Source of the DNA: a virus | Lineage: Duplodnaviria; Caudoviricetes | DNA length: 64,000 bases | Strand: one strand, 5' to 3' | IMG/VR virus record: IMGVR_UViG_3300021375_000006 | Shown here: positions 2,725 through 49,512 of the stretch, in pieces | Layout of the letters: the number at the start of each line of letters is the position of its first letter | Numbering within the stretch: the first letter of the stretch is position 1 | Program-made: the position numbers and the translations under genes | Notes under the pieces: generated by a model | Told to the model about the DNA's origin: nothing | Databases searched by the model: none | Seen by the model: only the letters and a program-made list of their open reading frames with translations

Positions 2725-2753
2725 GTTTATTATATGTTAATAAGTGGTAAAGT

Positions 2754-2912
2754 TTACTTACACCACTCGAGGAATGCCATATTATATGCTTCCTCATAAG
2801 AATATCCTTCTTTTAAAAGTTTATTAGCCCATTTAGTAACTTCGGCTTTTAAGCCATAAGCATTGGCTTCAGCTAGAATTTCTTCAATTAATAAATGTTC
2901 ATCTAAAGTCAT
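2754..2912 (-). CDS. Small hypothetical protein (52 aa)
   Basis: Translated by hand: MTLDEHLLIEEILAEANAYGLKAEVTKWANKLLKEGYSYEEAYNMAFLEWCK. Start overlaps the rnh stop (TAATG). Confidence 0.7.
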   Translation of the reverse strand: MTLDEHLLIEEILAEANAYGLKAEVTKWANKLLKEGYSYEEAYNMAFLEWCK

Positions 2913-4177: not shown

Positions 4178-4201
4178 ATCTTATGTTTGTTATGCTTTTC
4201 T

Positions 4202-4230
4202 AGTACTAATATACGAAAAATATCTGACAT
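4202..4230 (-). promoter_or_regulatory. Class I (early-like) promoter ATGTCA-N11-TATATTAGTACT
   Basis: Same motif and spacing at 38103-38131 (-) and 52530-52558 (+); all three are intergenic and just upstream of an ORF. Confidence 0.75.
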
Positions 4231-4253
4231 AGAAAAATTATTTAACACTTTTT

Positions 4254-5210: not shown

Positions 5211-5226
5211 ACAACTTTGTTTAGTC

Positions 5227-5255
5227 ATTATAGTACCAGATGGCTAAAATGTTTC
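5227..5255 (-). promoter_or_regulatory. Class II (middle-like) promoter GAAACA-N16/17-TATAAY
   Basis: One of ten minus-strand copies: 2729-2756, 5227-5255, 15197-15224, 25025-25052, 27441-27468, 32442-32469, 36506-36533, 37241-37268, 52190-52218, 52440-52467. Confidence 0.75.
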
Positions 5256-5272
5256 ATAGATAAATATACTAT

Positions 5273-5767
5273 ATGAGTATACGAATTGAGAAGACAGGAG
5301 GCCCATGGCCAGCAAACCGATACGGTATTGTTCTAAAGTACTTACCAAGATTCTTAAGAAAGTTTCTAATAACTCACAGGAATCTTGCTAAATGGTCTGA
5401 TGATGACCAATTCATGGAATGTGTTTTAAAGATACAGCGACCGAATTCTAGAACTAATACTAAGATTTATTGGGATATGATAAATGATAGAGCAATAGAT
5501 GAAAAAGGTCTAGAGCGTTCCTATAATACTATTGATTGGTATTGTGCCATCTCACTAAAACCTATTAGGGCTAAGTTTATGAATTTCGATTTAAAGAATT
5601 TCATACACCCTGAATATTACGATGTCTTAGAAGCGCCAATGGTGGATAGTCGTATACTTAAATCATCAGTTGACTTTCGCAAGAAATGCAAAAAACTCCT
5701 GCTCGCAGAACGAGAGGAGTTTCTTAAACTTGCTAAAAAGAACTCTAAGTCTAATTTATCTACTTAG
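5273..5767 (+). CDS. Hypothetical protein on the opposite strand
   Basis: 164 aa ORF filling the gap between minus-strand genes; GATAAATATA just upstream. Confidence 0.7.
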   Translation: MSIRIEKTGGPWPANRYGIVLKYLPRFLRKFLITHRNLAKWSDDDQFMECVLKIQRPNSRTNTKIYWDMINDRAIDEKGLERSYNTIDWYCAISLKPIRAKFMNFDLKNFIHPEYYDVLEAPMVDSRILKSSVDFRKKCKKLLLAEREEFLKLAKKNSKSNLST

Positions 5768-7684: not shown

Positions 7685-7738
7685 TTTTCAATATATGTGT
7701 TTGTCTATGTTTTATATATCTGGATGATTTTGCATAAA

Positions 7739-7763
7739 AAAAGCCCCTCGATGAGGGGCTTTT
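7739..7763. terminator. Intrinsic terminator downstream of the major capsid gene
   Basis: AAAAGCCCCTC-GAT-GAGGGGCTTTT perfect stem with A/T tracts. Confidence 0.9.
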
Positions 7764-7790
7764 ATATTAAATTACTAATTGCTATTTAGA

Positions 7791-9176
7791 TTATAGTCTA
7801 AAACCTGCAACAGTAAATTTCTCGTATTGAGTTTGTGGGTGGAATCCAGCTTCAACTAATGCGTATCTAGATTTTACAGCTACTTTTGGAGCCATAGTAC
7901 CTTCAACGATAGCCTGTACTGATTCAGCCATTAAGTAAGGCATGAATACAAGACCTGGACCGTTACCGTCACCTTTTCTACCAACTAATACTTCACCAGA
8001 AGCGAAGTCAACTGAAGGGTCAGTATAGATGTTAATACCTGCTACAGAACCTAAAGGATAGATTGAACCTGCAACTTGGTTAACAGTGTTAGCCATTGGG
8101 TAAGCAACGAAACCTGCTACAGATTGTAAAGCAGATGCCATTTTACCACCTACAACAGCGAAGTTACCTGCACCTCTTCTACCACTTTGCGCGATTAAGT
8201 TCGCAGCAGCAAGGATTGAAGTTAAGATAGCTCTGTGTTGGTCAGCGATAGTTTCACCACCAGTTAAAGCACCAGCAGCAGGAATAGTAAATCCTAAACC
8301 GTTAGTAGTACCAGCGATAGATCTCATCTTAGTTAAGATGTGATTGTTGATAGACTGAGTTAATTCGTTAGTTAAAACTGCTTCTACTTGAGCAACAGCG
8401 TCAACACCGAATTGTTTAAGGTCTTGTACTTGCTCTCTAGTTACAGCAGCAGCTACTTGGAAAGTCTCTGCAGAAACTGATTTAGAGAATAAGCTTAAGC
8501 CCATTACTTTGTCTGGAGTTTGTTCCCCAACACCTCTATCGAAAGGAGCACCAGCATCGTTAGCACCAGAGAAACCAGGAATATGGTCTTCTAAAGCTTT
8601 TACTAATTCAGCACCATCATATCTAACTGAAATACTAGTTTCAGCTGGATCTGCAGTCGCATCTAATGCATCAACAATTCTGATGATTGATTTTCCGTCA
8701 ATTCTAGAAGTTCCAACTTTTACGTCGTTACCTGCAGCTACAGAATCTTTATCACCAAACTTGATGTAAGTTGGAGTTGTTGAACCAGCAGTCTTACCAC
8801 CTTCGTATACGAAGTCTAAGTAAGAAAGTAATCCCATTGGTCCAGCCATAGGTACAACAGGTACTAGGTCTAAACCGATTGTTTGAGCAGCAACTTGCAT
8901 TGCTAAAGGTAATAACGTTGGTGATTTGTCACCTGAACCGTCTGCACCTGCACCACCTTGGGCAGTATTGTTACCTCCTGGGTAGCTTGTTGCTCCCATA
9001 CCAAAGATGTTACCAGCAGTGCCTAAGGCCATGATGTTTGCATCTTCATAAAGCTTGTGATTGTGGCAGTATTCTGACATCCAAGCTAGTTTTGAGCTTT
9101 CGTTAATTCCAGTTGCTTCTTCGATAATCGGAGACCAAGTGTTTCTAACTTCAGCTTCATTAATTAAATTTGCCAT
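7791..9176 (-). CDS. Major capsid protein (T4 gp23-like)
   Basis: VVPMAGPMGLLSYLDFVY, AQVEAVLTNELTQSINNHIL, GRRGAGNFAVV, YMAE...TMAPKVAVKSRYALV. Confidence 0.97.
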   Translation of the reverse strand: MANLINEAEVRNTWSPIIEEATGINESSKLAWMSEYCHNHKLYEDANIMALGTAGNIFGMGATSYPGGNNTAQGGAGADGSGDKSPTLLPLAMQVAAQTIGLDLVPVVPMAGPMGLLSYLDFVYEGGKTAGSTTPTYIKFGDKDSVAAGNDVKVGTSRIDGKSIIRIVDALDATADPAETSISVRYDGAELVKALEDHIPGFSGANDAGAPFDRGVGEQTPDKVMGLSLFSKSVSAETFQVAAAVTREQVQDLKQFGVDAVAQVEAVLTNELTQSINNHILTKMRSIAGTTNGLGFTIPAAGALTGGETIADQHRAILTSILAAANLIAQSGRRGAGNFAVVGGKMASALQSVAGFVAYPMANTVNQVAGSIYPLGSVAGINIYTDPSVDFASGEVLVGRKGDGNGPGLVFMPYLMAESVQAIVEGTMAPKVAVKSRYALVEAGFHPQTQYEKFTVAGFRL

Positions 9177-9212
9177 TTTGTTAAATTATTTTTTTAATGG
9201 TTTTGTTTAAGC

Positions 9213-9269
9213 GTTCATTTCTGAACTCGACTTGCTTGGAGTTTCTGCTTCTTACTCCTTTATCGTCGA
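9213..9269 (-). other. Structured 5' leader of the major capsid mRNA
   Basis: Nested TCGAC/GTCGA and GGAGT/ACTCC stems followed by a GTTCA-GAAA-TGAAC GNRA hairpin, between the late promoter (9274-9283) and the ATG. Confidence 0.55.
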
Positions 9270-9273
9270 TTAA

Positions 9274-9283
9274 TTATATATCT
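9274..9283 (-). promoter_or_regulatory. Class III (late-like) promoter (A/T/G)GATATATAA
   Basis: Copies at 1659, 7712, 9274, 11667, 12066, 13712, 16479 (variant), 17541, 18444, 30521, 48004, 52441, 55463 (variant) on - and 53089 on +; mostly upstream of structural genes. Confidence 0.8.
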
Positions 9284-11644
9284 TTACTTTTTAAATCTTT
9301 TCTTTAAGCCCTCAGCGTAGCTAGACACATCGTAAAGTGGCTTCTTCTCTTCAGCTTTAACTGCTGATTCGTTAATAGAAGCTAACTTTTCTAGGTCAAC
9401 TTTTACCTCTCTTAGATCTCTAGTTTCCCAGAAGTTTCTAACTTGATACTCAGTTTTTAGAGTATGGTATTTTGATTGAGCTTTAATTTGATTTTGTTTA
9501 GACTCAGAAAGAGCTTCGAACTTCTCTTTGTACTCTGCAGGAGCTGCAGTGATAAAGAATGGTTCAGCTGTTTTAGCTTCTACAACTGCTTCAGCAGATT
9601 CAACGATTGCGTTGATTTCGCCTTCAGTCATAAAACCTCTTTTAGCAACTCTTTGTCTAACTTCAGTTTTAGCATCTTCGTTTAGAGCATTATATTTCTC
9701 TTGAGTTGTGCTAGATACAACTTTAAAGAATGATGGATTTTCATTTTCTTTAACTTGTGCAGCTTCAACTAGAGCGTCTAACTTAGATGAAATTTCTTTT
9801 TTGTAAGTATCTAAAGCAGATTCTTCAACTTCTTCAGTTTCTTCAACTTCTTCAGTTTCTTCAACTTCATCTTCTTCAGCTACTTCTTCGTTTTCAGTTT
9901 TGATACCTTCTTCTTCAGCGTATTCTTCAGCATTTTCTTTGTCGTCAGCATCAACACCTTCAACATCATACTCTTCATCGCCTACTTTGAATTTAGATTC
10001 ACCTTTAGCAATAGCTTCTGCTCTTGCAGAACCGAATGCGTTACCTTCTTCGACTTCGTCTTCTTCAGCAACTTCTTCAGCACCTTCGCCAGCTTCGTCT
10101 TCTTCAGCAACTTCGTCTTCAACTACTTCTTCAGCGCCCTCACCTGCTTCATCTTCTTCAGCAACTTCTTCGCTTTCTTCTTCAGTAACTTCGTCTTCAA
10201 CTACTTCTTCAGCACCTTCGCCAGCTTCGTCTTCTTCAGCAACTTCTTCAGTTTCTTCAACTTCTTCAGTTTCTTCAACTTCTTCCTCTTCAGCTACTTC
10301 TTTAGCACCTTCTTCACCGTCTACTAATTCGTCTTCTAATTCATCAGACTCATCTTCAACTTTATCTTCAACTTCAGCGTCAGATTTTACAGTTTCGTCT
10401 TCTAACTCTTCAGCAGGCTCACCAGAATCACCAGATTCTACATCACCTTCTTCTGAATTATCACCAACGTTTTCAATATCGTCTTCAGCTTCTTCTTTTT
10501 CTTGACCAGGCTCTTCAGCTTCGTCTTCTTCTTCGGTTACTAAACTTTCATTGATTTGAGTAGCAATATATTCTGCATACTCAGAAACATTTTGTAAATT
10601 TTCTTTCAAATACTCTACATAAGATAATAAGTTCTCAGAAGTTTCCGTACCTTCATTATGTTGTTCAGCCAAATAGTTAGAAAAATCTTTAACTTTACTA
10701 ACAGCTTCAGCTAAATGCTCAGAGTATTGAATACCTTGATCTAATTTTTCTGCTACATTTTCTGTATATGAAATACCTTGATCGGCTTTTTCAGCTACAT
10801 GCTCTGTATATTGGATTGACTCGTCTAATTTGCCAGCTAAATACTCTACGTATTCTGAGAGAGTATTAACGCGCTCGACGATGTGGTCGTTATGAGACTT
10901 TACGTTCTCTAACGTGTTATCTTCGCTATTCGCTCCGATAGACTCTTTAATGCCTTTAATTTCGTTAGCTAAGTACTCAGAATACTTGTGGAAATCTTCA
11001 GCCTTTACAAATTCTGCCATGTTTTTATTATTATTTGTTTCTATATTGGTTTCTGTAATTTCTTGTGCTACTTCAGGAGCTTCTGCGCCCTCGCCGTTCA
11101 TTTCGTAGATCCATAGACCTGAGTTATCATCAAAGCCATAAGATTCATTTACTCTCTTTAACTCAGCATTAGCGAATCCAGGATCTGCTACTAAGTCATA
11201 AGTAAATAATTGCTTGATTTTAACTTTACCGTTAGATTCAACGGCACCAGCTGCTCTAGAAGAGATTTGTAAAGGTACTCCAGCATCAACAAGAGCTTTA
11301 GCTTGTCTACCAGCATCAGTATCTAAAAGTCTGATTTTACCTTTAACGTGTTTGTTATCTTTGTCGTAATAAAGTTCTTCAATAATGTGTGAAACATTCT
11401 TAAGAGAAACATCAAACTGTTGTGGGTGATCTAATTCACCTAATAGTTTAGAAGATTTAATCTTATCTTGTAATTGCTGAATTTGAGGAATATACTCATC
11501 TTCAGTGTAGATACGATTATTTTTATTCTTGGAGTCAATTTCTCCAAAGATACCTTCTAGAATGTACTCTTTGTTTTCACCTTCAGCTACTTTTAACTGA
11601 GATGAAGACATTTCTACGATCAATAAGTCGTTTTTGTTTGCCAT
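9284..11644 (-). CDS. Prohead core protease (gp21-like) fused to scaffolding/core protein (gp22-like) with acidic repeats
   Basis: N-terminal LEGIF...KNKNNRIY...LLGELDHP...ISSRAAG...YDLVADPGFANA = gp21 protease, followed by helical repeats and an E/D-rich low-complexity tract. Confidence 0.92.
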   Translation of the reverse strand: MANKNDLLIVEMSSSQLKVAEGENKEYILEGIFGEIDSKNKNNRIYTEDEYIPQIQQLQDKIKSSKLLGELDHPQQFDVSLKNVSHIIEELYYDKDNKHVKGKIRLLDTDAGRQAKALVDAGVPLQISSRAAGAVESNGKVKIKQLFTYDLVADPGFANAELKRVNESYGFDDNSGLWIYEMNGEGAEAPEVAQEITETNIETNNNKNMAEFVKAEDFHKYSEYLANEIKGIKESIGANSEDNTLENVKSHNDHIVERVNTLSEYVEYLAGKLDESIQYTEHVAEKADQGISYTENVAEKLDQGIQYSEHLAEAVSKVKDFSNYLAEQHNEGTETSENLLSYVEYLKENLQNVSEYAEYIATQINESLVTEEEDEAEEPGQEKEEAEDDIENVGDNSEEGDVESGDSGEPAEELEDETVKSDAEVEDKVEDESDELEDELVDGEEGAKEVAEEEEVEETEEVEETEEVAEEDEAGEGAEEVVEDEVTEEESEEVAEEDEAGEGAEEVVEDEVAEEDEAGEGAEEVAEEDEVEEGNAFGSARAEAIAKGESKFKVGDEEYDVEGVDADDKENAEEYAEEEGIKTENEEVAEEDEVEETEEVEETEEVEESALDTYKKEISSKLDALVEAAQVKENENPSFFKVVSSTTQEKYNALNEDAKTEVRQRVAKRGFMTEGEINAIVESAEAVVEAKTAEPFFITAAPAEYKEKFEALSESKQNQIKAQSKYHTLKTEYQVRNFWETRDLREVKVDLEKLASINESAVKAEEKKPLYDVSSYAEGLKKRFKK
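9820..10300 (-). repeat. Coding tandem repeats (EEVEET; AEEDEAGEGAEEV)
   Basis: Repeated GAAGAAGTTGAAGAAACT and GCTGGCGAAGGTGCTGAAGAAG units. Confidence 0.9.
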
Positions 11645-12095: not shown

Positions 12096-13691
12096 TTAAA
12101 GTGCATTCGGGTCCTCTTTCTCAGGCTCATCTGCATTATCTTTAGCCTCCTTTGCCTTATAGGCTTTGTTAGCTCTAATCTCGTCGTCAGTTAATTTTAA
12201 GTATTTAGTTACTAGATATTCTTGATCGAAATAGTATTCTTCTTCCATAGTTTCTGGATTAGTTGTCATTAGAGAGTCTCTCATGCTTGCGATAAAGTCT
12301 AATCTCAATTGCATGATTTCTTGCTCTTTTAATTCTGCAAATACATTCTCTTCATTATATCTTAATGCTACTTGAGTTTTAAACTGTGGATCGTCTACAA
12401 ACTCTGGGTACTTAAGACACATTTGAATATAAAGTGGTTTTACTAATATCTCTTGGAAGACTGATCTTAGACGCTTGATAAATTTACCAAACTTAATCTC
12501 ATCTCTTACCATACCGTCACCGGCTAGTGCGTAGTCACCACCATCATCTTCATATAAGAATCTATTGTAAGGAATTTTTGAAACCTCTTTTAATTTATCT
12601 GAGAAGTATTTAAGTGCTTCAGTGTCTGATAGATCTGGACCATCACCACCAAGGGTTTCAATTTCTGGCGTTTCACCATCTTTAGAAGGTAGCCAGTATT
12701 CTTTAGAGAATTGTAACATTGGCTTACCATCAGTTTCTAATGTTCCTGATTCAAAGTCAAAGTCTACAACTTCTTTATAGTTATTCATCAGCTGTGCTAA
12801 TGATTGTTTTGCTCTTGTTTTAGATTTACCACCAACAGGGATAATAAACTTCATTCTGAATGAAGCGTTCGTTACTGCCCATACCACTCTGGTATGTTCC
12901 ATAATTCTTAGTAAGTTAAAAGATCTTACTAGTCTCTCAACGTAACTTACTCTTGAAGCAGTTGAAAGGGAAGAATATGAAATGTAAATAATTTGAGAAT
13001 CATAAAGTACTCTCTCCTTTACAGGATCGTCTTTATATTGAATCCATACTTTCTTACCATCGTCTTTATTGTAACCTGGCATTAGAGTGATAGGATCGAT
13101 CTCTTTAAAACCTATAATCTCTTTTTGGTCTGGGGAATAAATTATCTCAAATGATAAGTAACCATCTACTAGGAATTTTCTAAAGAAGTACCATGCTGAT
13201 TGCTCACCATTAAATCCAAAGTAGTGATAGATTTGTCTAAAGTATTTGTTCAGGTCTTTGTTAACCTGGTCTGAGACATCAAGTCCCATAATCTCTGGTT
13301 GACAAAAGAAATTCTTTTCATTATATACCACTGCCTCGTCACAAAGAATATCTAGAATATCTTCAACCTCATCGTTCATTGAGAATCTTCTCAATTCATC
13401 TCTCTTACCTGGATAATCAATGTCAAAGAAAGGTACATTCTTCTTCATATTGATGTCACCCATTGATAGTGCTGCAAACGCACCATAGATGTCATCATTA
13501 TCTAAACCGAATGGATTCATTTCCTTATAGCCAAATTGGTCTTCCATTGGACCAATAGCTTGGGATTGACGTAGAACCATATCATCATAGCGCATACCAA
13601 AAGAACTTAGCGTCTTCAGTGCACTGGAGAGGCTAAATGGTCTTGTGTTAGAACTAAATGGTCCGTTTCTTTTATCTGCAAATCCTGCCAT
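12096..13691 (-). CDS. Portal vertex protein (T4 gp20-like)
   Basis: FRKFLVDG, IDP, SYVERLVRSFNLLRIME, YWLPSKDG...EIETLGG, YFSDKLKEVSKIP, RDEIKFGKFIKRLR. Confidence 0.97.
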   Translation of the reverse strand: MAGFADKRNGPFSSNTRPFSLSSALKTLSSFGMRYDDMVLRQSQAIGPMEDQFGYKEMNPFGLDNDDIYGAFAALSMGDINMKKNVPFFDIDYPGKRDELRRFSMNDEVEDILDILCDEAVVYNEKNFFCQPEIMGLDVSDQVNKDLNKYFRQIYHYFGFNGEQSAWYFFRKFLVDGYLSFEIIYSPDQKEIIGFKEIDPITLMPGYNKDDGKKVWIQYKDDPVKERVLYDSQIIYISYSSLSTASRVSYVERLVRSFNLLRIMEHTRVVWAVTNASFRMKFIIPVGGKSKTRAKQSLAQLMNNYKEVVDFDFESGTLETDGKPMLQFSKEYWLPSKDGETPEIETLGGDGPDLSDTEALKYFSDKLKEVSKIPYNRFLYEDDGGDYALAGDGMVRDEIKFGKFIKRLRSVFQEILVKPLYIQMCLKYPEFVDDPQFKTQVALRYNEENVFAELKEQEIMQLRLDFIASMRDSLMTTNPETMEEEYYFDQEYLVTKYLKLTDDEIRANKAYKAKEAKDNADEPEKEDPNAL

Positions 13692-38172: not shown

Positions 38173-39930
38173 TTATAGTGGCCAAATCATGGATGTGCCT
38201 GCATCATGCCATTCACTATACCACCCTTTTTTATTAAGTTCCTTTTCCCATTTGTTATCTACACCAAACGTTCTGTTCTTGTAGTCTTCAGAATAGTAGT
38301 CATAAATTTCTCTACCTTTATACTCATCGCCATTCTCACCTGAAACCCAGATACCACCTTGAGAACCGTTGAACTCTTCAGTAGTTCTTACAAAGTCCAT
38401 ATACTTTTCGATCCACTTAATCATAGCGTCTCTATCAAGTTTCTTTTCAGTAATAGGTTCTACAGATTCAAATGCAACTTCTTTATCAACTATTTCAAAA
38501 CTAACTGAATTATGAATACTTGTTTTTCTCTTCTTTTCTTTACCTTTACTTATTTCAACAAATGCTTCTTGTCCTCCAACTTCACCAGCAACTCTTTTAT
38601 AGAAATAACCATGCTCTGTTTTGATATATTCACCTACATTTACACTCATTGCCTCAGTAACTACAGATTCTGCAAATGCCTCAATATCCCACTGGATTCT
38701 TTGCATTGGGTCATCGTATGGGAATTCTTTCTCTACCCAGTCAATTAGACCTGGTTCAAACTCAGCGTTTTGAGCCATATCAAAAGCATTCTTCCAGCCA
38801 TCATTAGACGCTACATCCTCTAACCACTGGTCATACTTCTTTTGATTCCATCTCTTCATGGCTTTCTTTCTGTTCTTCTCAGCCTCTTTCTTCATGGCAT
38901 CTAATTTAGCCATGTCTGCTCTTCTAAGCTTATCTTGTCTTAGTCTGATTAGAACAGGATCGTTATAGTCCGTCGCCTCTGTCATCATTTCCTCTTGAGC
39001 GAACTTGTTATACTCTTTTGACCACTTCTTCCATTCAGCTGGAGTAGCATAATCTTCTAATACATCAACTACATCTCTGTTACCTTTTTGTTCAATAACT
39101 TGGTCTGCAATCCATCTACCTGCTTTTGCATTTAAGTAATAAAGTGCGCCTGCATCAGAGAATTTGTAAGATTCAGTTAACCATGCCATTGCAGAATGCC
39201 AGTTATCTTCAATCTCTCTACGTTTAAAACCTGCAAGTTCTAATGTACCCCAGAAACCATAGGCTTCATTTACATCGTCGATTGAGTATTGATTTTTCTT
39301 ACCGAACTTAAATGCTTCATTAACTAAAGATTCGCTAACAAAATTATTAAATTGTGTAAATAGTTTAAATCCTTCCATCTCTAGTTTCTTTTTTGTTTTG
39401 TCTTTTTTAGCCTCCTCTTCGTCATCATCAATATCTGCTACTGAAGGTACATCGCCAGAACCTATACCGCCATCAGAAGGTAGAACCACAGGGCCCATAC
39501 CGCCTATATTAGCACTAGGTGTAATATTTTGTGCTGCATGTGCAAAATCTTCATCCACAGCAACACCTCTCTTTTTTAAGATCTTTTCAATTTCTTGGTA
39601 AGCTCTCTTGTAATCAGATTTAGAGTAGTGCATTCCTTTAGCATAGTTAGCATAACCATCTAATGCTCCGTTATACATTCCTAGTAATTCTTCATCTGAC
39701 ATTTTATCATTGAATACAAATGGTCCAATAAATGCTTCATCTACCGTCTCTGGTAGTTTATCATGTTTTGTAGAAGCGTATTTCTTTAAGTCTTTCTTTG
39801 TCATTCCGTCTGATAATGATTTTACTTTGTCTCTATAAGCTGGGTCGATGTCTGAGATTTCCATATCACCGGATTTAACAGCGTATGCCATTCCCATTAA
39901 TCTTTGTTGTGACTTACTTACAGATGGCAT
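38173..39930 (-). CDS. Multi-module putative internal head polyprotein
   Basis: N-terminal SKSQQRLMGMA...KYASTKH module; modules bounded by TVDE, AVDE, ESLVNE, MMTE, ESVVTE and PITE; internal FTQFNNF motif. Confidence 0.6.
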   Translation of the reverse strand: MPSVSKSQQRLMGMAYAVKSGDMEISDIDPAYRDKVKSLSDGMTKKDLKKYASTKHDKLPETVDEAFIGPFVFNDKMSDEELLGMYNGALDGYANYAKGMHYSKSDYKRAYQEIEKILKKRGVAVDEDFAHAAQNITPSANIGGMGPVVLPSDGGIGSGDVPSVADIDDDEEEAKKDKTKKKLEMEGFKLFTQFNNFVSESLVNEAFKFGKKNQYSIDDVNEAYGFWGTLELAGFKRREIEDNWHSAMAWLTESYKFSDAGALYYLNAKAGRWIADQVIEQKGNRDVVDVLEDYATPAEWKKWSKEYNKFAQEEMMTEATDYNDPVLIRLRQDKLRRADMAKLDAMKKEAEKNRKKAMKRWNQKKYDQWLEDVASNDGWKNAFDMAQNAEFEPGLIDWVEKEFPYDDPMQRIQWDIEAFAESVVTEAMSVNVGEYIKTEHGYFYKRVAGEVGGQEAFVEISKGKEKKRKTSIHNSVSFEIVDKEVAFESVEPITEKKLDRDAMIKWIEKYMDFVRTTEEFNGSQGGIWVSGENGDEYKGREIYDYYSEDYKNRTFGVDNKWEKELNKKGWYSEWHDAGTSMIWPL

Positions 39931-40491: not shown

Positions 40492-42864
40492 TTACCAAGC
40501 GTAATCGAACTTCTCGATCTTGTTTATTCTTTCTTTAATTTGTTTCGCGTAGTTCTTAGATTCTCTTTCGTAGTAAGATTCTTTTTCGCCATATCTAGCT
40601 TCAGATTCTTCTGCTTGTCTAATGTAATCTACATATCTAGAATAGTCATCTAAAATATTTGACATGTGTTGAGATGCATCTTTTGCTTTTACTTCTTTAC
40701 CTTTTGCGTTTTCACCAATTTTGATTTCTTGGTATCTAGTCTTCTCACCTTTTGCTAAACCATCTGAGATTTGCTTAGCCAGTTTATCGATTGCATCTGC
40801 TACCATTTTATCTAGTGGTAAGCTTGCAGCTTTATTAGCTAAGATCTTGTGGTATCTATTTTGGTTAGCCTCTTTAAAGTCTTTATCAGATTTGAATGCT
40901 GTTGCACCGGCTTTAGCTTCTGCTCTTGCACTTCTTAATTGGTCAGTAGAATACTTTTGTCTAATTAATTCTAGGTTAATAACAATAACTCTATCGGACA
41001 TCTCTGCAATTCTCTTACCGTTGTTAAGACCTGATGCACCCCAACCCCTGTATTTGTGGTTGATACCGATTTGACCCTCAGAACCTTTTTTCTCTTTAGA
41101 CCAAGATCTACCACCTGACCATCTTGACCATTCATTAGCATAGAATTGTCTGTCACCAGACATAGCTGCTAATACAATACCTCCACCAGGAACCATTTTA
41201 TAGTCATTCCATGATCCGTTGTTATGGTCATAGTATGGATTTTCTTTCTCGTTATCTGAGATAAAGAAAAGTACGTGGCTTGAACCGCCGTAGTTTTTAA
41301 ATATCTTTGATACATCGTTGCTAATAATAAAATCTTCATCTTCGATTTTATCAAGAGCTACTTTAGATAGGTTGTAAAAACCTTTAGCTAAATTAGAAAG
41401 ATTTTTCTTACTTTCTTTACCCTCTCTACCGTTCGATAGAACTGTTCTTAATATAGAGGATTTGATTGCTTCGTTAAGAAAGTTAGCTCCAACGAAGTCG
41501 CTAAATGACTCAAACAAGTTTATTTCGTTTTTCATATTTGTATTTTCTTCTAGTTTTTTAGCAGCTAAATCTTTATCTCTTTTGGATACGTTATCTAGGT
41601 AAGAGCCGTCTCCCCAGAATTTAACAACTAATTCAGTTTGAGTAGTTGAATGCATACCTGGTTTGTAAACTGCAATATCTCTTAATTTCTTGTTAGAAGC
41701 AATGGTTTGCTTCATGAAGTCAAGAGCTTGTTTCTCGTTTCTAAACTTTTTCATAGCACTTACACCGTCACTATAGATAACTTCATAGTTTTCAGTAACT
41801 GCAGATTCTTCTAAATATAAGTTTACATATTTACTACCTTTTTCTGAGTAAATTGAAGTAATTTTAAAATCACCTTTAATTGATTTACCAGTATCTTTTT
41901 TATACCAATCTGCATAATAAGCTTTAAAGAATAAGTTTGGTTCTAGTTCTCCAAAGAAGTGTGAAAGTTTACCTAAATAAAATTCAGCTTTAGGATATAC
42001 TTTTAAAATATCTTTTTCTGTTTCAGCATCTAGAACTGCTTTATCAAATTCTTTTACAAATTTAGCTTCAGTAACTTTTGACTCATCCACTCTCTTGATA
42101 GTATCGTGGAACCAATCTTCTGGCTCATCTCTATAATCAGTGTAAACATCAATTTCCCATTCATCACCGAATTGGTCAACGCCAACATAATACCAATCTT
42201 TGCCCTCGTTACCGTGGTCGTCAATAATATCACCTTGGTCAAACTCTACTTCATACTTCTTACCACCATCTTTAAATTCAATATATGGGAATTTATCTTT
42301 AGTAACTTTGATCTTCTCGTTTACTACTGACTCTTCGATATACTCGGCTAAATCTGGATCGTCCCATCCAAGTTCTGGATCTGCTAGTACTTTTTCAAGA
42401 TCCTTTCTCTTACCCTGCATTGTGATAACTGGAGTACCACCGCCTGGACCGTCCATTACTTTATTGATAATCTTAACTTTATTCTTCTTTAAGAATTTTA
42501 AGAAGTCTTTATCATCAGGGTTAATTGCATCCATCTCTACTGTAGCCTCAAATACCTCAGCAGCTTTAGGAGTTTCATCTAGCTCAGCTAGAATTCTACG
42601 TCCCCATTTTGAAAGCTTTACACCATCTTCAGAAACATTAAAGTACTTTCTATTTCTAGAAGCCCATTGATTTGAACTAGTAGATAATTCAGAAAGAATC
42701 TTATTGAATTCTTCTCTTGTTACCACGCCATCTGCAATTGCCTGTAAGACTGCGTTTCTTACGCTAGCAGTTTTACCTACAGTTTGAGCAGGGTGGTTCT
42801 CTGTATATTTTCTTTTGATTTGCAATTTCTTGCCTTCCGATAAAAAGTCTTCGAAGTTTATCAT
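40492..42864 (-). CDS. Multi-module putative internal head polyprotein
   Basis: MINFEDFLSE leader; linkers EVFE, ESVVNE, ESKVTE, ESAVTE; internal MKNEINLFESFSDF...FLNE. Confidence 0.6.
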   Translation of the reverse strand: MINFEDFLSEGKKLQIKRKYTENHPAQTVGKTASVRNAVLQAIADGVVTREEFNKILSELSTSSNQWASRNRKYFNVSEDGVKLSKWGRRILAELDETPKAAEVFEATVEMDAINPDDKDFLKFLKKNKVKIINKVMDGPGGGTPVITMQGKRKDLEKVLADPELGWDDPDLAEYIEESVVNEKIKVTKDKFPYIEFKDGGKKYEVEFDQGDIIDDHGNEGKDWYYVGVDQFGDEWEIDVYTDYRDEPEDWFHDTIKRVDESKVTEAKFVKEFDKAVLDAETEKDILKVYPKAEFYLGKLSHFFGELEPNLFFKAYYADWYKKDTGKSIKGDFKITSIYSEKGSKYVNLYLEESAVTENYEVIYSDGVSAMKKFRNEKQALDFMKQTIASNKKLRDIAVYKPGMHSTTQTELVVKFWGDGSYLDNVSKRDKDLAAKKLEENTNMKNEINLFESFSDFVGANFLNEAIKSSILRTVLSNGREGKESKKNLSNLAKGFYNLSKVALDKIEDEDFIISNDVSKIFKNYGGSSHVLFFISDNEKENPYYDHNNGSWNDYKMVPGGGIVLAAMSGDRQFYANEWSRWSGGRSWSKEKKGSEGQIGINHKYRGWGASGLNNGKRIAEMSDRVIVINLELIRQKYSTDQLRSARAEAKAGATAFKSDKDFKEANQNRYHKILANKAASLPLDKMVADAIDKLAKQISDGLAKGEKTRYQEIKIGENAKGKEVKAKDASQHMSNILDDYSRYVDYIRQAEESEARYGEKESYYERESKNYAKQIKERINKIEKFDYAW

Positions 42865-43269: not shown

Positions 43270-45129
43270 TTATATATTCTTTAAAAAATCATCGAAGGTT
43301 AGGAATTCTGGTTGTGCAGATTCTGCAGCAACACCCATCGAGTCTTCTAATTTCATTTTAAGTTCTCCATACATACCATGTATATCCTTAGGAGTTAATT
43401 TCTTAAATAGTCTTTCGTCACCATCAAGCATTGCGTTTCTAACCTGAGTTGCTGAAATATTCTTGCCTGATCTTGGAATTTCAAATAAACCAAAATCGTC
43501 TCTTACACCTAGATCGTCTCTGTATTCTTGTTTATCTGCTTGATAACTATAGACTTTCATTCTATCAGTTCCAGTTCCCCATAATACTGGCTCGTATTGT
43601 GGTCTTAATTCATTAAACATTTTATCAATTGCTGCAGTAGGTAAAATCTTTACATCTTCAATTGGATAAGAAGATTTTAATTTTTGTAACATTGATAGTT
43701 GAGTCTCTTCGTCGTAAGGTCTCTTGAATGCATCTTCTGCTTTCTTAGTTTTAGACTTAATTAAAAAGATAACTACTGGATAACCGTTTTGTTTATAGAT
43801 AGTTTCAATAACTTTAGCGTGTCCTAATGTAAATGGTTGAAATCTACCAACAAACATATTTACAGGCTTCTTACCTTGATCTTTATACTTAACAGTTAAG
43901 CCTTCCATGATTGGACTAACTTGAGCTGAAATTTTTTGGTTTAATAAATATTGTTTAAAATCCATTACGTCTGATTCATTTGCTTTTGCCATTATTAAAC
44001 CCTCAATGGTTTCAACGATCTCGTTGATCTGCTCCATTAAATCTTTATTAATAAGGTCGGTTTCTTTAGTTCTCTTTTTTCTAAAAGAGCCTAATACAAT
44101 CTTAAATAACTCAGATAATATCTTATCTTGTACTAAAGTAAGTGTCTTTTCGTTTTGAATAAACTTATTATTTAATTCAAACATAGGAGATTCAGAAAAG
44201 TCTGCAGAGTCAAATTTAGCACCAATATATTTTGTAGCATTTTTTTCTACATAATTATTAAAAATAGATGACATTAATTCTAAATATCTTCTATCTACCT
44301 TTCCTTCTTTTAATTCTATTGATGAGAAATCAAATTGTACTAAATGTTCTACAACATCTAAAATTGTAATTTGATACATGTCTGATGGTTTTCTTGGATC
44401 CATCGGTTTTTTATTAAACTTCTCTAATTTAAAAGATTGTAATTCTGTTCCGTCATGAAAATTAATAATAAACCCTGCAACATCTTTTGAAAGATCGTTC
44501 ATTAAAGCAGATTGCTTCATATTCTCATTAAAAATACCGAATACTGTTCTTGTAAAGCTAGGCTTCTCAAAGTCTTCAAATGTCTGTTCAAATTCATTAA
44601 CCGACATTGCAAGAATTTGTTTTAATCTATCCTTTTGACCTGAGTCAAGTTGACCTTCAAATAATATAGGTGGTTTTGAAACATTTAGTTTATCCGCCCA
44701 CTTATTAAGTATTTTGGTATCTCTAATTACCTTTCTAACTTTATTAGGATTAGATGGTTGTAAAACTTGTATATGCGTTAAAATTAAATTTGATTCTGGT
44801 AAAACATCATACTCCACATCAATTGTTTTATTATCGCCAAGATATTCAAATCCAAACTTCCAGTCAAATGGCATATCTTCTATAACTTCTTTAGAAACAG
44901 ACTTAAAGTGGCGAATTGCGTTCTCATAGTATCTGACAATTGTACGATCTACTATATCCATTGGTTGCTTAGAACCAGATTTATAGTATGCAAAATCAGT
45001 ACCTTGTCTTCTTGCATGAAAAGATGAACCGTTGATTTTCTCAGTCACAATACATTTGTGGTTAAGTAGTTTATCAACGTCTGCTGTGTTAGCTCCTTCG
45101 AAATATGTTTTTAAATTGTCTAATGCCAT
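43270..45129 (-). CDS. Ligase-fold nucleotidyltransferase-like domain fused to an HxGH-type (cytidylyltransferase-like) domain
   Basis: N-terminal VTEKINGSSF; C-terminal FVGRFQPFTLGH...GTDR...ISATQVRNA. Confidence 0.75.
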   Translation of the reverse strand: MALDNLKTYFEGANTADVDKLLNHKCIVTEKINGSSFHARRQGTDFAYYKSGSKQPMDIVDRTIVRYYENAIRHFKSVSKEVIEDMPFDWKFGFEYLGDNKTIDVEYDVLPESNLILTHIQVLQPSNPNKVRKVIRDTKILNKWADKLNVSKPPILFEGQLDSGQKDRLKQILAMSVNEFEQTFEDFEKPSFTRTVFGIFNENMKQSALMNDLSKDVAGFIINFHDGTELQSFKLEKFNKKPMDPRKPSDMYQITILDVVEHLVQFDFSSIELKEGKVDRRYLELMSSIFNNYVEKNATKYIGAKFDSADFSESPMFELNNKFIQNEKTLTLVQDKILSELFKIVLGSFRKKRTKETDLINKDLMEQINEIVETIEGLIMAKANESDVMDFKQYLLNQKISAQVSPIMEGLTVKYKDQGKKPVNMFVGRFQPFTLGHAKVIETIYKQNGYPVVIFLIKSKTKKAEDAFKRPYDEETQLSMLQKLKSSYPIEDVKILPTAAIDKMFNELRPQYEPVLWGTGTDRMKVYSYQADKQEYRDDLGVRDDFGLFEIPRSGKNISATQVRNAMLDGDERLFKKLTPKDIHGMYGELKMKLEDSMGVAAESAQPEFLTFDDFLKNI

Positions 45130-45137
45130 AATAGTTT

Positions 45138-46409
45138 TTATCTACCGTATTTAATAATACCCATTAACTGGTTAATAGCGGCAAAAGTTCCAGTTAACTT
45201 GAATGTTTTACCATTGTATTTAAAGACTAGGCCTTCTGTTGGAATGATTGACTCAATACCGCCGATACCTTCTAGTCTCTTTAATTCTTTTTCTACTTTC
45301 TCAATTTGTTTTAGATCTCCGTTCTTTTTAACTTTGTCAGCTTCAGTTCTGATTTGCTTATGTAATCTTGCTTTCTCAGCCTCTGGGTTAGCAGCAACAA
45401 AATTAGAAACGTTCTTTAAAACATCTGCACCTAATTCTAAAAATAGGTTCTCGAAAGGTAGAATGTTTTCTTTATACTTCTTATTTCTTTGACCATCAAA
45501 ATCTTTGACAGCTTTTGCTTGTTCTGGAGTAACTGCTTTCTTTAAGTCTCTCATATTTAGAGTCTTCTTGTCTAAGTATGCCCATCTTAATAGAAGTCCT
45601 TCTTTTAATACTGGGTCTAAATCCCCAAAGTTCTCTTCGATTTGGTTTCTCCACCAAGCCTCGTGATACATTTTAACCTCATCTTGATCTGATAGACTAT
45701 AAGTATCTCTTAGTTTATTTATCGCCTTTTCGTAATAGCCGACTCTCTCATCAAAGTTAATATCTTTTCCTAACTTTAAAATTTGAGGGGGAATTATTGT
45801 AAAGGTCTTTTGCACATCAGCTTTTAACTCTCTAAGTGCTTTTACAATCTCACCTGCAATATTCTCTTCACCTATGATATTACCAGCACCATCAGTAACT
45901 TTCATACCGTGGAATTGAATAACATCTCTGTCATAATAGATTACATTAGGATTCTTAGAGTAAATTAGCTCCATGTTGATAAATGAGTTACCATCTTGGA
46001 ATACAGATTGGTCCTTAAGCTTTGGGAGCGCATCTGCTAGATCTTTAGCAGCAAAGATAAATGTTTCTTCAACCAGCTTTGAAGCATGGCCAGTAAACAT
46101 CTTAATGATACCATTTAGGTCGAGTGGATTAGCTAGTTGCCCTTTATTTCTAGCGAACATAGCTTTACCATCTTTTACAGTTGCAAATACATTCTGACCA
46201 TCTGTCTTTTCAGTTGGTGCCTCTTCAAAATCAAGACCTCCTTGTAGTGCAGACTTTACAATTCTCTTGAAATCTGCAAACGTTAATGAGTGGTCATCGA
46301 ATGGGTGCATCATGTGACCAGCGGCACCACCTTCAAATACGAAATTGTCCAAGTTATTGACCTGGACTTTCTCGTTTAAGAATTCTTTAAATGTATATAG
46401 TTTCTTCAT
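45138..46409 (-). CDS. ATP-dependent ligase-fold (RNA ligase-like) nucleotidyltransferase with TFKEFLNE leader
   Basis: EGGAAGHMMHPFD; motif I EKTDG, III NMEL, IIIa IQFH, IV EGLVF, V KTFKL. Confidence 0.7.
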   Translation of the reverse strand: MKKLYTFKEFLNEKVQVNNLDNFVFEGGAAGHMMHPFDDHSLTFADFKRIVKSALQGGLDFEEAPTEKTDGQNVFATVKDGKAMFARNKGQLANPLDLNGIIKMFTGHASKLVEETFIFAAKDLADALPKLKDQSVFQDGNSFINMELIYSKNPNVIYYDRDVIQFHGMKVTDGAGNIIGEENIAGEIVKALRELKADVQKTFTIIPPQILKLGKDINFDERVGYYEKAINKLRDTYSLSDQDEVKMYHEAWWRNQIEENFGDLDPVLKEGLLLRWAYLDKKTLNMRDLKKAVTPEQAKAVKDFDGQRNKKYKENILPFENLFLELGADVLKNVSNFVAANPEAEKARLHKQIRTEADKVKKNGDLKQIEKVEKELKRLEGIGGIESIIPTEGLVFKYNGKTFKLTGTFAAINQLMGIIKYGR

Positions 46410-46428: not shown

Positions 46429-47967
46429 TTATCCTAATGATGATTGTAATGCACCAACTGCTGCACCATAGTCACCGTCGTGTTTAGTTAATAAACCGTC
46501 TACTACTTCTTGAGCTTTTTCTTCATCGAATTCGTCACCGAACGCTTGTTGTAAAACTGAGAATGCATACTCTTTAAAATCTTCGTCTGATTTTACTTCA
46601 GCTTCGTTAGTAGCTTCTTCAGCAACTTCTTCAGTTTCTTCTACTTCTTCAGTTTCTTCTACTTCTTCAGTCTCTTCAACCTCTTCAGTTTCTTCTACTT
46701 CTTCAGTCTCTTCAACCTCTTTAGTTTCTTCTACTTCTTCACCTTCTTCAGTAGCTTCACCTTCTTCGTGGTGTGCTTCTTCAGTAGATTCTGTTTCTTC
46801 TTCAACTTCTTCTCCCTCTTTAATTACAGGATAAGTCTTACCGTTAAACTCAAACTTTTCAGCATCTTCTTCGATTGCTTTAGCTCTTGCGGCTAAAAAA
46901 GCGTTACCTTCATTCATCACAGACTCGTTAGCCCAGATTAATTCAAATGCATCTACAATTTTTTGAGCAGTATCACCATGTCCGAATCCATCTAAGAATA
47001 ATGCCATACCTTCAACGATACCAATACCTGACCATCCAGCTGCATTAGCTAGACCAGAGTAATGTTCGTCTAATAGGTTAATGATTGATTTTTTACCAAC
47101 TGGAACTGACATTCCACCTAAATTATCGATGTCTACCATAATAGTAACAATCTTACCACCTAGTGCTTTACTTACTGGATCTCTATATCTGTGGAAGTTA
47201 GCGTCTGTTAGGGCTTCAGCTAATAAGTATCTACAAACACCTAATAAAAGTGGTCCGTCCATTAATGCAGTATGGTTCGTAAAGAATGATTCTAACCATT
47301 TAGCAACTTTCTTAGCGTCTCTTGCATTACCTTTACTTGGTTTAAATGCTTCATTAATAATTAGTGACTCAAATGCTGGAATTAATTCTTTATCTCCATA
47401 TACATCTGCCATATACCATTTGCCATCTCTTTCATCAAATAGGTAAACGAATTCTGCTCCTGCTCTATCGCTAGCATCAGAAATATAATCGTCGACTTTC
47501 TTAACATCACCTTTTAGTGTTGTTTTATCTCCGTAGAAATTAATCTTACTTGGATCTGCTTCCAAACCTGAGCCACCCCCTTTCTTAAGTAAAAACTTAA
47601 CTGTTCCGGAGTTCATGTAACCCTTCTTAATTGTAGGTAACATGTGGTCTGGATAACCATCGTAGTGCATATACACTGACTCTATTTTTCCTCTTTTAGA
47701 AATAATACCAACTTGTGATCTGGTACCTTCTTCAATGATAGCTAAAGACTCAGATACTTCAGAAGCACCTAGCTTAGCAAAAAATTTGTTTCTATCTTCT
47801 TCGTTTAAATCTTTTACAGATGTAACGCCGAACTCAGATAATAATGTTTCGAATTGGTAAGCTGACTCTGTACGAGCTACTTTTTGTTCTTCTTCTAATT
47901 TCATTTTTGCTGCTTTAGCGGAAGCATTAGCGAAATCTTCAAAAGACTGTAGTTTTAATGAACCCAT
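46429..47967 (-). CDS. Multi-module putative internal head polyprotein with acidic repeats
   Basis: SFEDF leader; modules after AIIEE, ESLIINE, ESVMNE and ATNE; contains a GTRS...VYMHYDGYP module and a GNAF module; late promoter at 48004. Confidence 0.6.
   Translation of the reverse strand: MGSLKLQSFEDFANASAKAAKMKLEEEQKVARTESAYQFETLLSEFGVTSVKDLNEEDRNKFFAKLGASEVSESLAIIEEGTRSQVGIISKRGKIESVYMHYDGYPDHMLPTIKKGYMNSGTVKFLLKKGGGSGLEADPSKINFYGDKTTLKGDVKKVDDYISDASDRAGAEFVYLFDERDGKWYMADVYGDKELIPAFESLIINEAFKPSKGNARDAKKVAKWLESFFTNHTALMDGPLLLGVCRYLLAEALTDANFHRYRDPVSKALGGKIVTIMVDIDNLGGMSVPVGKKSIINLLDEHYSGLANAAGWSGIGIVEGMALFLDGFGHGDTAQKIVDAFELIWANESVMNEGNAFLAARAKAIEEDAEKFEFNGKTYPVIKEGEEVEEETESTEEAHHEEGEATEEGEEVEETKEVEETEEVEETEEVEETEEVEETEEVEETEEVAEEATNEAEVKSDEDFKEYAFSVLQQAFGDEFDEEKAQEVVDGLLTKHDGDYGAAVGALQSSLG
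46610..46810 (-). repeat. Coding tandem repeat (EEVEET)n
   Basis: About six 18-bp units, the same unit type as in the scaffold gene. Confidence 0.9.
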
Positions 47968-48003: not shown

Positions 48004-49512
48004 TTATATATCACCGTCAAAAGTCACATTTTTTACCTCAAACGGGAACTTCTGTTCCTTATAGATCTTTTGACGCGCTTTGGCATGTCGAATGAGATAG
48101 TTATCCCAGTCTGGTGATGATAAGTCATCTACGAAATCAATGATATTTACCTCTGATTTTGTGTGGTGTTTTCTTAACCCTCTACCGATTGATTGTCTAA
48201 TTATGACTTCCGATTTAAACGATTCGGTAAAGAAGATATTATGTATTTTCTTAATCGAGATCCCTGTTGAGAACGTACCATAAGAGGCAACAATGACAAC
48301 CTGCGCGCCTGCTTCCATCTTCTTCTTGTATTCTTCACGGATGTCCTTGTCGGTATTACCATCCACATAATAGATGGGTTTGTCACTATCTTGGCGCAGT
48401 TTCTCATAAATTCTTTTGCCGTGTTCGATTCGGTGGAAAAGAACAAGGCTATTCCCACGTACTCTGGAAATAATGTTGCAAATGAAAGCCAAGCGCCCTG
48501 TTGAATTGATGACATAATTACTTTCAAATCTGAAAACGTCTTTACTTTCATATCTGTTTTGGGACATCTCATAAAAAGCATTCTTTGTGCTTTGAGGTGC
48601 ATAATCCATTTTTATTACTTTCACATTACAACCTGCAATGTGACCTTCATCTTGAAGGAATGCCGCATTGACCTCTGTAATTACAGGGCCTGTATGTGCC
48701 ATTAGGGTTAATCTATCTAACGTCTTTGCTTTTGGAATTGTCCCCGAGAGTCCAAATCGATAGTTTGCAGCAGTACATTTTTGTAGAATTGTTTTAATAG
48801 AGGTAGACTTAGCCTTGTGAGTCTCATCGATAATTACAGCGTCAAACTGTTCAAAATATTCTTTGTCTTTCTTAACAAGAGATTGATACGTACCAATTAC
48901 CATGTTTCTACCCGGTCTAATCTTTTGACCAGAATAGATCTGTTGTACCTTAATATTCGTTGCATTACGCCAGTTATAGTCCATAAAGTCCTCAGAGGCC
49001 TGTACAACTAACGAAACGTTTGGGACGATAAGTAATATCCTTCCAGCCTTGCCCTTCTCTAACATATACGCAATAGCCATATACGTTATCAAGGTTTTAC
49101 CAGCTGATGTGGCTAACTCACTTAGACATCTTCTAAATTTTAGAATATTATATGCCGCTTCAATTTGATAATCTCTTGGGTTTAATTCATGGCCATCAAA
49201 GTAGTCTTCTGCCCATTTTGTAAACTCTTCTTGTTTTACCGAAGGGTCGAATAGTGTGGTTACACCATTCATCTTTAACTCGAACTTATATTGTTTACAC
49301 AGATCCATCACCTCTTTCCAAAGTCCAGATGGAATCCACTTATCATCCTTAATATAGGAGATATAGCCATCCCATAGACCTTTCTTCACAAGAGGATGAA
49401 AGCGCCAGTTTTCAATTCTACGATTAAATGTGATATTGAGTTGTTCTATTTCTAGTTCACTCGCCTCATCAATACGCAGAAACTGCTTATTATCTGTTAA
49501 ACTCAGTTCCAT
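48004..49512 (-). CDS. uvsW: SF2 DNA helicase UvsW
   Basis: PRDYQ, ATSAGKT, IIDETH, GLSGT, TFSTGISI, QSIGRGLR. Confidence 0.95.
   Translation of the reverse strand: MELSLTDNKQFLRIDEASELEIEQLNITFNRRIENWRFHPLVKKGLWDGYISYIKDDKWIPSGLWKEVMDLCKQYKFELKMNGVTTLFDPSVKQEEFTKWAEDYFDGHELNPRDYQIEAAYNILKFRRCLSELATSAGKTLITYMAIAYMLEKGKAGRILLIVPNVSLVVQASEDFMDYNWRNATNIKVQQIYSGQKIRPGRNMVIGTYQSLVKKDKEYFEQFDAVIIDETHKAKSTSIKTILQKCTAANYRFGLSGTIPKAKTLDRLTLMAHTGPVITEVNAAFLQDEGHIAGCNVKVIKMDYAPQSTKNAFYEMSQNRYESKDVFRFESNYVINSTGRLAFICNIISRVRGNSLVLFHRIEHGKRIYEKLRQDSDKPIYYVDGNTDKDIREEYKKKMEAGAQVVIVASYGTFSTGISIKKIHNIFFTESFKSEVIIRQSIGRGLRKHHTKSEVNIIDFVDDLSSPDWDNYLIRHAKARQKIYKEQKFPFEVKNVTFDGDI

Follow-up and report, generated by a model that had tools for sequence, protein, structure and literature searches.

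The internal proteins of phage T4 (IPI, IPII, IPIII and Alt) and the head and ejection proteins of the giant phages phiKZ, 201phi2-1 and SPN3US are the described systems closest to P0001, a gene in the IMG/VR virus record IMGVR_UViG_3300021375_000006 (Duplodnaviria; Caudoviricetes), of which a stretch of 64,000 nucleotides was analysed and is referred to here as the window. The T4 prohead protease gp21 cuts after Glu in the motif L/I-X-E (PMC9026906), and the T4 capsid-targeting sequence (CTS) reads MKTYQEFIAE (10.1101/2021.01.19.427310). In the giant phages a diverged gp21 homologue (gp175/gp245; PMC5694885, PMC10052503, PMC9026906) cleaves many head and ejection proteins behind Glu, in this case within the motif S/A-X-E (PMC5694885). 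P0001 encodes a protein of five modules, the second of which (module B) belongs to a family of largely stand-alone proteins and is flanked by candidate sites of the T4 type. The preferred reading, to which a probability of roughly 0.7 is given, is that P0001 is a capsid-targeted, gp21-processed and head-packaged cargo polyprotein in which cuts at the bonds E80↓G81 and E206↓A207 would free module B with the native N-terminus of its family. From the arrangement of genes and sites we infer that the modules of P0001 are packaged, cleaved and delivered.

Like the T4 internal proteins, P0001 occurs in a genome that encodes a gp21-family protease and carries motifs with Glu at P1 and Ile or Leu at P3. 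In both cases the cargo is diverse, shuffles fast and is mostly without an assigned function, and the T4 layout of a CTS and a single cut is copied by the short-leader homologues of module B. Unlike in the T4 proteins, up to five unrelated modules are linked in a single chain, each joint having a predicted site; the leader is a module of 80 residues and not of 10, and the P0001 sequence resembles none of the T4 internal proteins. Giant-phage propeptides have multiple sites which are predictable from sequence logos, as is the case here, but their P3 residue is small (S/A in phiKZ, 201phi2-1 and SPN3US) whereas it is I/L/V in the present proteins, as in T4. The giant-phage substrates lose propeptides, and chains of wholly released independent domains were not found among those described; a search of the literature found no published description of such polyproteins with one leader and many cargoes. 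The modules of P0001, delimited by homology breaks against 150 homologues, and the two predicted sites that bound module B are as follows (↓ marks the predicted scissile bond).

46429..47967, minus strand: P0001, an open reading frame (ORF) of 512 amino acids, putative capsid-targeted cargo polyprotein with five modules (ORF list and translation).
47728..47967, minus strand: module A, residues 1-80, N-terminal leader with the CTS-like core KLQSFEDF and the junction ES-LAIIEE at its end.
47725..47736, minus strand: predicted cleavage site I-I-E-E↓G (P4-P1↓P1'), bond E80↓G81, which matches the T4 gp21 motif L/I-X-E.
47350..47727, minus strand: module B, residues 81-206, phrog_1987-family domain with the predicted mature start G-T-R-S and the motif Y-x-H-x-D-G-Y-P.
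47347..47358, minus strand: predicted cleavage site I-I-N-E↓A, bond E206↓A207, C-terminal boundary of module B.
46909..47349, minus strand: module C, residues 207-353, a separate homology block whose label carries no function.
46603..46908, minus strand: module D, residues 354-455, motif GNAF...F-x-F-x-G-K-x-Y-P-V followed by acidic EEVEET repeats, with V-M-N-E↓G before it.
46432..46602, minus strand: module F, residues 456-512, C-terminal module with T-N-E↓A before it (homologue alignment).

An earlier note on this DNA had placed an embedded module at 47350-47727, directly behind ESLAIIEE, and translation of 46429-47967 on the minus strand bears this out. The interval is exactly residues 81-206, with the codon of G81 at 47727-47725 and that of E206 at 47352-47350, and residues 73-108 read ESLAIIEE followed by GTRSQVGIISKRGKIESVYMHYDGYPDH, that is ...AIIEE↓GTRSQVG...SVYMHYDGYP. 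The widespread phage family that the note had described is a real one, phrog_1987, and residues 1-114 of module B match positions 2-122 of its 128-position profile (PHROGs, E 2.5e-16). The match starts from profile position 2, so the module begins directly after the family Met, and the edge of the alignment coincides precisely with the EE↓GTRS bond, as had been predicted. Among cultured phages, tblastn matched free-standing genes in S-SKS1, S-CRM01 and ACG-2014f of Synechococcus and in about 20 phages of Streptococcus. In all three phage records inspected the alignment sets in at codon 2 of the annotated coding sequence, the products starting MGTRS, MATRS and MATKA; S-SKS1 SWZG_00213 and S-CRM01 g249, which account for the first two of these forms, are members of the family together with Streptococcus suis phage proteins. 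Members of phrog_1987 share with module B the same domain, the conserved residues (Thr2, Arg3, Gly7, Tyr19, His21, Asp23, Tyr25, Tyr95 and Trp104) and the predicted fold. They differ from it in that they are stand-alone proteins of 100-150 amino acids which start at the domain, whereas the copy in the window is internal to 512 amino acids and belongs to a separate clade, all members of which have a protease-type site upstream. As encoded, the domain starts at P0001 residue 81 and would become N-terminal only after the predicted cut.

The family is large. An exhaustive phmmer search of 1.84 billion representatives returned 814 homologues of module B (E <=0.001), and a profile search limited to proteins of 56-237 amino acids returned 1,029 family proteins, none of which has a Pfam domain or an informative name. 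Searches of P0001 and module B against Pfam, NCBIfam and PDB sequences gave nothing significant, a tblastn search with the whole of P0001 against 50,697 phage records gave zero matches, and nine longer free-standing relatives, extended at the C-terminus, were scanned with Pfam and gave no hit. The record nearest to the window, a fragment of 23 kb, does not contain the gene. Across 66 embedded and free sequences T2, D23 and Y95 are invariant and R3, G7, Y19, H21, Y25, G50 and W104 are conserved in at least 90%; all ten are present in the window copy. The Thr at position 2, found in 66 of 66 aligned sequences, is always preceded by G, A or S. Cellular homologues, recovered from bacterial and archaeal genomes by means of a back-translated DNA pattern, have a Met codon exactly before S/A-T-R in 61 of 64 true cases. 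Genes for gpA terminase, N6/N4 DNA methylase, DUF3489 and DUF6900 recur beside them, and such surroundings indicate prophages or other mobile elements. Free-standing members were seen in widely differing bacteria and in archaea, among them Akkermansia, Streptomyces, Rhodobacterales, Bacteroidales, Methanosarcinales and Methanocorpusculum.

The N-termini of these proteins carry the main argument. Among 257 retrieved and re-aligned homologues with a complete module start, 145 are free-standing and have only Met before the module; their residue 2 is S (110), A (26), G (8) or T (1), followed by T-R in 137. Together with the cellular copies, they agree with the expectation that homologues would mainly be stand-alone proteins which start at the module. 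Short leaders of 6-53 residues are found in 25 homologues, all with Glu at P1 and Ile or Leu at P3, and in a further 87 the module is embedded at positions 76 to 636 of proteins of 200-1,036 amino acids, all with Glu at P1 and Ile, Leu or Val at P3. The extension-bearing copies therefore have P1 = E, P3 = I/L/V and P1' = G/A/S in 112 of 112 cases, with P2 and P5-P8 variable, and no extension that lacks the [ILV]-x-E motif occurs among the 257 homologues. Examples of short leaders are MIKLTELLKEDVINE↓G and MKNIKLFEEFINEKPINE↓G, which copy the T4 layout of a CTS of about 10 residues and one cut. The residue which would be first in the mature protein, after the cut or after removal of Met, is Gly in 84% of the extended copies, while Ala or Gly accounts for 23% of the free ones. 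The size of S, A, G and T at residue 2 permits removal of Met by methionine aminopeptidase, so that embedded copies, once cut after Glu, would share the mature register of the free proteins, as the earlier note had proposed from the window copy.

The motif is also distributed as expected for a protease site. Within the modules of extension-bearing copies [LIV]-x-E occurs 15 times where shuffles predict 84.5, as opposed to 294 occurrences against 257 expected in free-standing modules, and in the window copy there are zero between residues 81 and 205. In the homologues module B ends in a conserved tail, PAFES, which is followed by hydrophobic-x-E, and the same type of junction (ES, two hydrophobic residues, x and E, then A or G) also stands before the unrelated modules C, D and F in P0001 and its relatives. 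Module C is placed at varied positions in other polyproteins with x-N/T-E↓A directly before it, and module F, which aligns mostly to the C-terminal end of its homologues, is preceded there by ES-V-V-N/T-E↓AE. Ten ES...E junctions across three polyproteins of the window use different synonymous codons, and this variation at synonymous sites points to selection on the amino-acid sequence, not on a fixed DNA word. That the junction is a gp21-type protease site is supported by these patterns, and the agreement in 112 of 112 extended copies lies far beyond chance, [LIV]-x-E making up only about 4% of positions in P0001.

The alternative that survives best, although it is unlikely, is that P0001 is an uncleaved multidomain protein in which ES-hydrophobic-hydrophobic-x-E is simply a preferred flexible linker or the trace left by domain shuffling. 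Taken by itself, the coincidence of homology boundary and junction carries no weight, since the two must coincide whenever something is fused ahead of a domain with its start at residue 2. The polyprotein processing which the earlier note had drawn from that coincidence thus gains nothing from it, but does gain from the invariant P1 Glu and P3 I/L/V, from the avoidance of internal sites and from the presence of the protease. In a maximum-likelihood tree a single branch (Shimodaira-Hasegawa-like approximate likelihood ratio test 96) separates the extension-bearing copies, as one clade, from all others, and with a single origin a linker could simply have been inherited. The note had regarded routine N-terminal extensions on homologues as damaging; extensions do occur, but in this one clade only, and every one of them ends in [ILV]-x-E. 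Well-supported branches force at least 10 switches between the short-leader and the embedded state, with the site kept each time, and a passive linker would not be expected to keep P1 Glu and P3 I/L/V in all 112 copies through so many changes of partner while P2 and P5-P8 drift. An uncleaved protein would also leave unexplained why [LIV]-x-E is lost inside embedded modules only, why the junction matches the gp21 motif exactly in a genome with a gp21 gene of its own, and why there are short-leader forms resembling the T4 CTS and the same types of site in the N-terminus of the capsid protein. A variant in which the junction is a recombination word is at odds with the junction DNA, which is not conserved at silent sites. 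The position of the gene among replication genes and the fact that cleavage is so far only predicted are in favour of an uncleaved protein.

The candidate processing enzyme and the genes of the head lie in the first part of the window, and a promoter-like word is shared between them and P0001.

7791..9176, minus strand: Gp23-type major capsid protein (PF07068, E 3.4e-45).
9284..11644, minus strand: gp21-family prohead protease joined to an acidic, scaffold-like region in one ORF of 786 amino acids, candidate processing enzyme (PF03420 and phrog_207).
12096..13691, minus strand: portal protein (phrog_213, E 8.4e-73).
48004..48012, minus strand: GATATATAA, promoter-like word, 36 nucleotides upstream of the P0001 ATG.

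The N-terminal part of the protease ORF matches PF03420 (Peptidase_S77) with 47.9 bits against a cut-off of 27, and the head maturation protease phrog_207 with E 7.6e-37. The remainder is scaffold-like, with heptad-like repeats, long acidic repeats of the EEVEET type and a copy of the GNAF... motif. In T4 the protease (gp21) and the scaffold (gp22) are separate genes. PF03420 was also found in each of five large IMG/VR contigs that have module B in embedded form, in ORFs of 673-782 amino acids which have the same long form. The first residues of the capsid protein are MANLINE↓AE..., and additional sites of the forms I-E-E↓A and I-N-E↓S precede its Gp23 domain; this N-terminus with its cleavage-type sites is conserved in five related contigs. 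A hidden Markov model (HMM) of the 35-residue motif of module D, made from other contigs, matches P0001 with E 5.8e-18 and the protease/scaffold ORF at 9284-11644 with E 1.6e-13, in the latter beside similar acidic repeats. The motif HMM was required for this comparison, as module D and the protease/scaffold protein show no significant BLASTP similarity after composition correction. The motif of about 35 residues may act as a core-association element. Across many contigs one or two copies per polyprotein were noticed of GNAF-x-AARA-x-AI...F-x-F/V-x-G-x-x-Y-x-V with acidic repeats.

The word GATATATAA occurs 13 times in the window where 1.7 copies are expected, the sites including 7712, 11667, 12066, 13712, 17541, 18444, 48004 and 61068 on the minus strand and 53090 on the plus strand. 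At least seven copies lie within about 40 nucleotides upstream of ORF starts, mostly those of structural genes, among them the portal, the protease and ORFs of 118 and 642 amino acids. Its placement suggests that GATATATAA is probably the late promoter of this phage group. A promoter of the T4 late type was considered and rejected because the T4 late-promoter word TATAAATA is absent, with 0 copies in the window against 11 expected.

These elements fit together in a possible sequence of events for the cargo polyprotein. In a large marine T4-like phage P0001 would probably be made late, along with the head genes, and its N-terminal leader would carry it into the prohead core, where the gp21-type prohead protease would cut after Glu in [I/L/V]-x-E at the module junctions. 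Cleavage of the bonds E80↓G81 and E206↓A207 would set free a domain of 126 residues whose new N-terminus, G-T-R-S..., is in the register that free relatives would reach by removal of Met ([S/A/G]-T-R-S...). Once free, this domain would remain in the capsid and would probably pass into the host along with the DNA, as the internal proteins of T4 do.

It is very unlikely that the Glu sites serve another protease of host or phage in the cytoplasm, with products that act in the infected cell and are never packaged. Such a route would suit the neighbouring replication and nucleotide-related genes and a leader which is an 80-residue module in place of the 10-residue T4 CTS, and packaging itself is only inferred. 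Against it stand the motif, which is that of gp21-family enzymes acting inside proheads (PMC9026906, PMC5694885), the sharing of GATATATAA between P0001 and head genes and of module D with the scaffold/protease protein, and sister architectures that have leaders like the T4 CTS.

A number of observations weigh against the processing and packaging of P0001 itself. All extended copies share one ancestor, so that the count of 112 in 112 and the z-score for avoidance overstate the number of independent observations; the 10 or more switches and the widely differing upstream partners restore this independence in part. The cleavage specificity of the window protease, a diverged fusion of 786 residues, is assumed by analogy with T4. 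The leader of P0001 has no cut site right after its CTS-like core, the P3 residue of two of its junctions is Thr (T-N-E↓A) and Met (M-N-E↓G), and module C has three internal [LIV]-x-E sites. The gene adjoins those for helicase, primase and SSB, and some 35 kb separate it from the head module. The embedded form is absent from the cultured phages in the collection of 50,697 records, and a literature search for virion proteomic or biochemical data on the phage or on relatives with this form found none. With regard to position, the internal-protein genes of T4 are likewise scattered.

The leader deserves separate comparison. Residues 5-66 of module A align only to the N-termini of homologous polyproteins, which have the pattern K-x-x-SF-x-x-F in common. 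P0001 starts MGSLKLQSFEDF..., and by eye its likeness to the T4 CTS is confined to the core. The starts of neighbouring ORFs (MKKLYTFKEFLNE, MKTIPTFEQFLNE and ...KTFEDFIAE) and those of the short-leader homologues are much closer to the T4 sequence.

What module B might do once released can be approached through its predicted structure. Folded alone by AlphaFold2, it gives a predicted local distance difference test score (pLDDT) of 93 and a predicted template modelling score of 0.88. The model is an alpha+beta fold with five strands and three helices in 126 residues, in the order hairpin (strands 4-9 and 14-20), two helices, strand, helix and second hairpin. When flanks of 20 residues are included, residues 61-78 and 202-211 have pLDDT <50 and the domain >90; the low values place both junctions in predicted flexible linkers and indicate that the upstream chain is not docked. 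By the register of the first hairpin residues 1-3 would lie opposite residues 20-23, so that the N-terminus would fall within the conserved cluster. A solved relative of the fold was not found: the best Foldseek match in the PDB has E 0.12, the best VIA-align score among 48,161 chains is Z 4.5 (Brix-domain and anticodon-binding-like chains), which is within noise, and in an ESM Atlas feature search all scores were <=0.80. The model does match uncharacterised cluster representatives in the AFDB (template modelling (TM) score 0.7-0.8, E down to 2.6e-8), mostly from residue 2, as well as phage proteins in the BFVD within the same range of TM scores, and all of these structural matches are themselves uncharacterised predicted structures. 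The fold was also noticed in the ESM Atlas (TM 0.76-0.80) within clusters of 313-residue NUDIX proteins and of 361-residue pentapeptide-repeat proteins from Bacillota; these modelled fusions may offer a lead to function.

The invariant Thr2, the nearly invariant Arg3 and the lack of extensions that could not be processed hint that the free N-terminus matters for function. Trypsinogen-type activation, N-terminal nucleophile (Ntn) hydrolases and the Pro1 of tautomerases all depend on a newly exposed N-terminus. As an analogy, module B too would have a fixed N-terminus beside invariant residues, and two routes, removal of Met and endoproteolysis, would lead to the same end; there is no relation in fold or sequence between these enzymes and module B. 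One guess along these lines is that module B is a small effector which acts on arrival in the host, with a site formed by Thr2, Arg3, His21 and Asp23 at the N-terminal hairpin that does not tolerate extension. A rather unlikely elaboration is that of a latent effector armed by liberation of its N-terminus. The upstream chain would block the site formed by Gly/Ser-Thr-Arg and the His-x-Asp of the first hairpin, and the prohead protease would free the end only in the capsid. A possibly harmful activity would in this way be silent in the producing cell and active in the next host, and free relatives would reach the same state by removal of Met.

An Ntn-hydrolase-like self-processing, in which an autocatalytic cut between G and T exposes the invariant Thr in free proteins (which would lose Met-Ser) and embedded ones alike, could draw on the Thr2 that follows G/A/S in 66 of 66 sequences, on the strictly kept N-terminal position in free forms and on the parallel with the Gly-1/Thr1 arrangement of proteasome beta subunits. 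It is barely credible given that it leaves unexplained why embedded forms have an invariant Glu two positions before Thr and I/L/V four positions before it, that Arg invariably follows Thr and nothing else in the family suggests such chemistry, that Thr would be residue 2 and not the first residue after a Glu cut or removal of Met, and that this small alpha+beta domain has no match to an Ntn hydrolase at the Foldseek and VIA-align scores given above, with no four-layer alpha-beta-beta-alpha entry among the PDB matches of the model.

Should the cut after E80 be real, these genes would be residue-exact evidence, obtained from sequence alone, that T4-like phages of marine Flavobacteria load and cut chains of unrelated small proteins, and the T4 model of one leader and one cargo would be extended to one leader and many cargoes. 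The rule [I/L/V]-x-E↓[G/A/S] could then be used as a predictor of packaged cargo in uncultured phages. A real cut would also single out a widespread family (more than 1,000 members of up to 237 amino acids, which occur in phages, in prophages and in archaea and are matched by neither Pfam nor NCBIfam) whose exact N-terminus appears to be selected via two unrelated routes of maturation, which would provide a handle on its function.

P0001 is one of three modular polyproteins in the window, the other two being found downstream of it in the direction of transcription.

38173..39930, minus strand: second modular polyprotein, 585 amino acids, with the junctions ESLVNE↓A, ESVVTE↓A and ESVEPITE↓K.
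40492..42864, minus strand: third modular polyprotein, 790 amino acids, with the CTS-like start MINFEDFLSE↓G and the junctions ESVVNE↓K, SKVTE↓A and ESAVTE↓N.

Some modules of the third polyprotein are found after module B in other contigs. A close syntenic relative in the ENA (262,636 bp) has at its locus 1824-11463, in this order, the genes for gp32, primase and helicase, the counterpart of P0001 and ORFs of 423 and 619 amino acids. In this relative the module appeared at first sight to be a separate gene of 186 amino acids, a candidate which was rejected: the helicase and the polyprotein are both split and coverage is 6x, so that a frameshift error in the assembly is the most likely cause and the split is not counted as evidence. 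Directly downstream of P0001 in the window, the ORF at 45138-46409 (minus strand) starts MKKLYTFKEFLNE and contains by eye a ligase-like K-x-D-G motif, EKTDGQN. The next ORF, at 43270-45129 (minus strand), has near its N-terminus an EKINGS motif, again recognised as a ligase motif by eye, and a cytidylyltransferase-like domain (PF01467) at residues 425-565; the two ORFs may encode packaged nucleotidyl-transferases.

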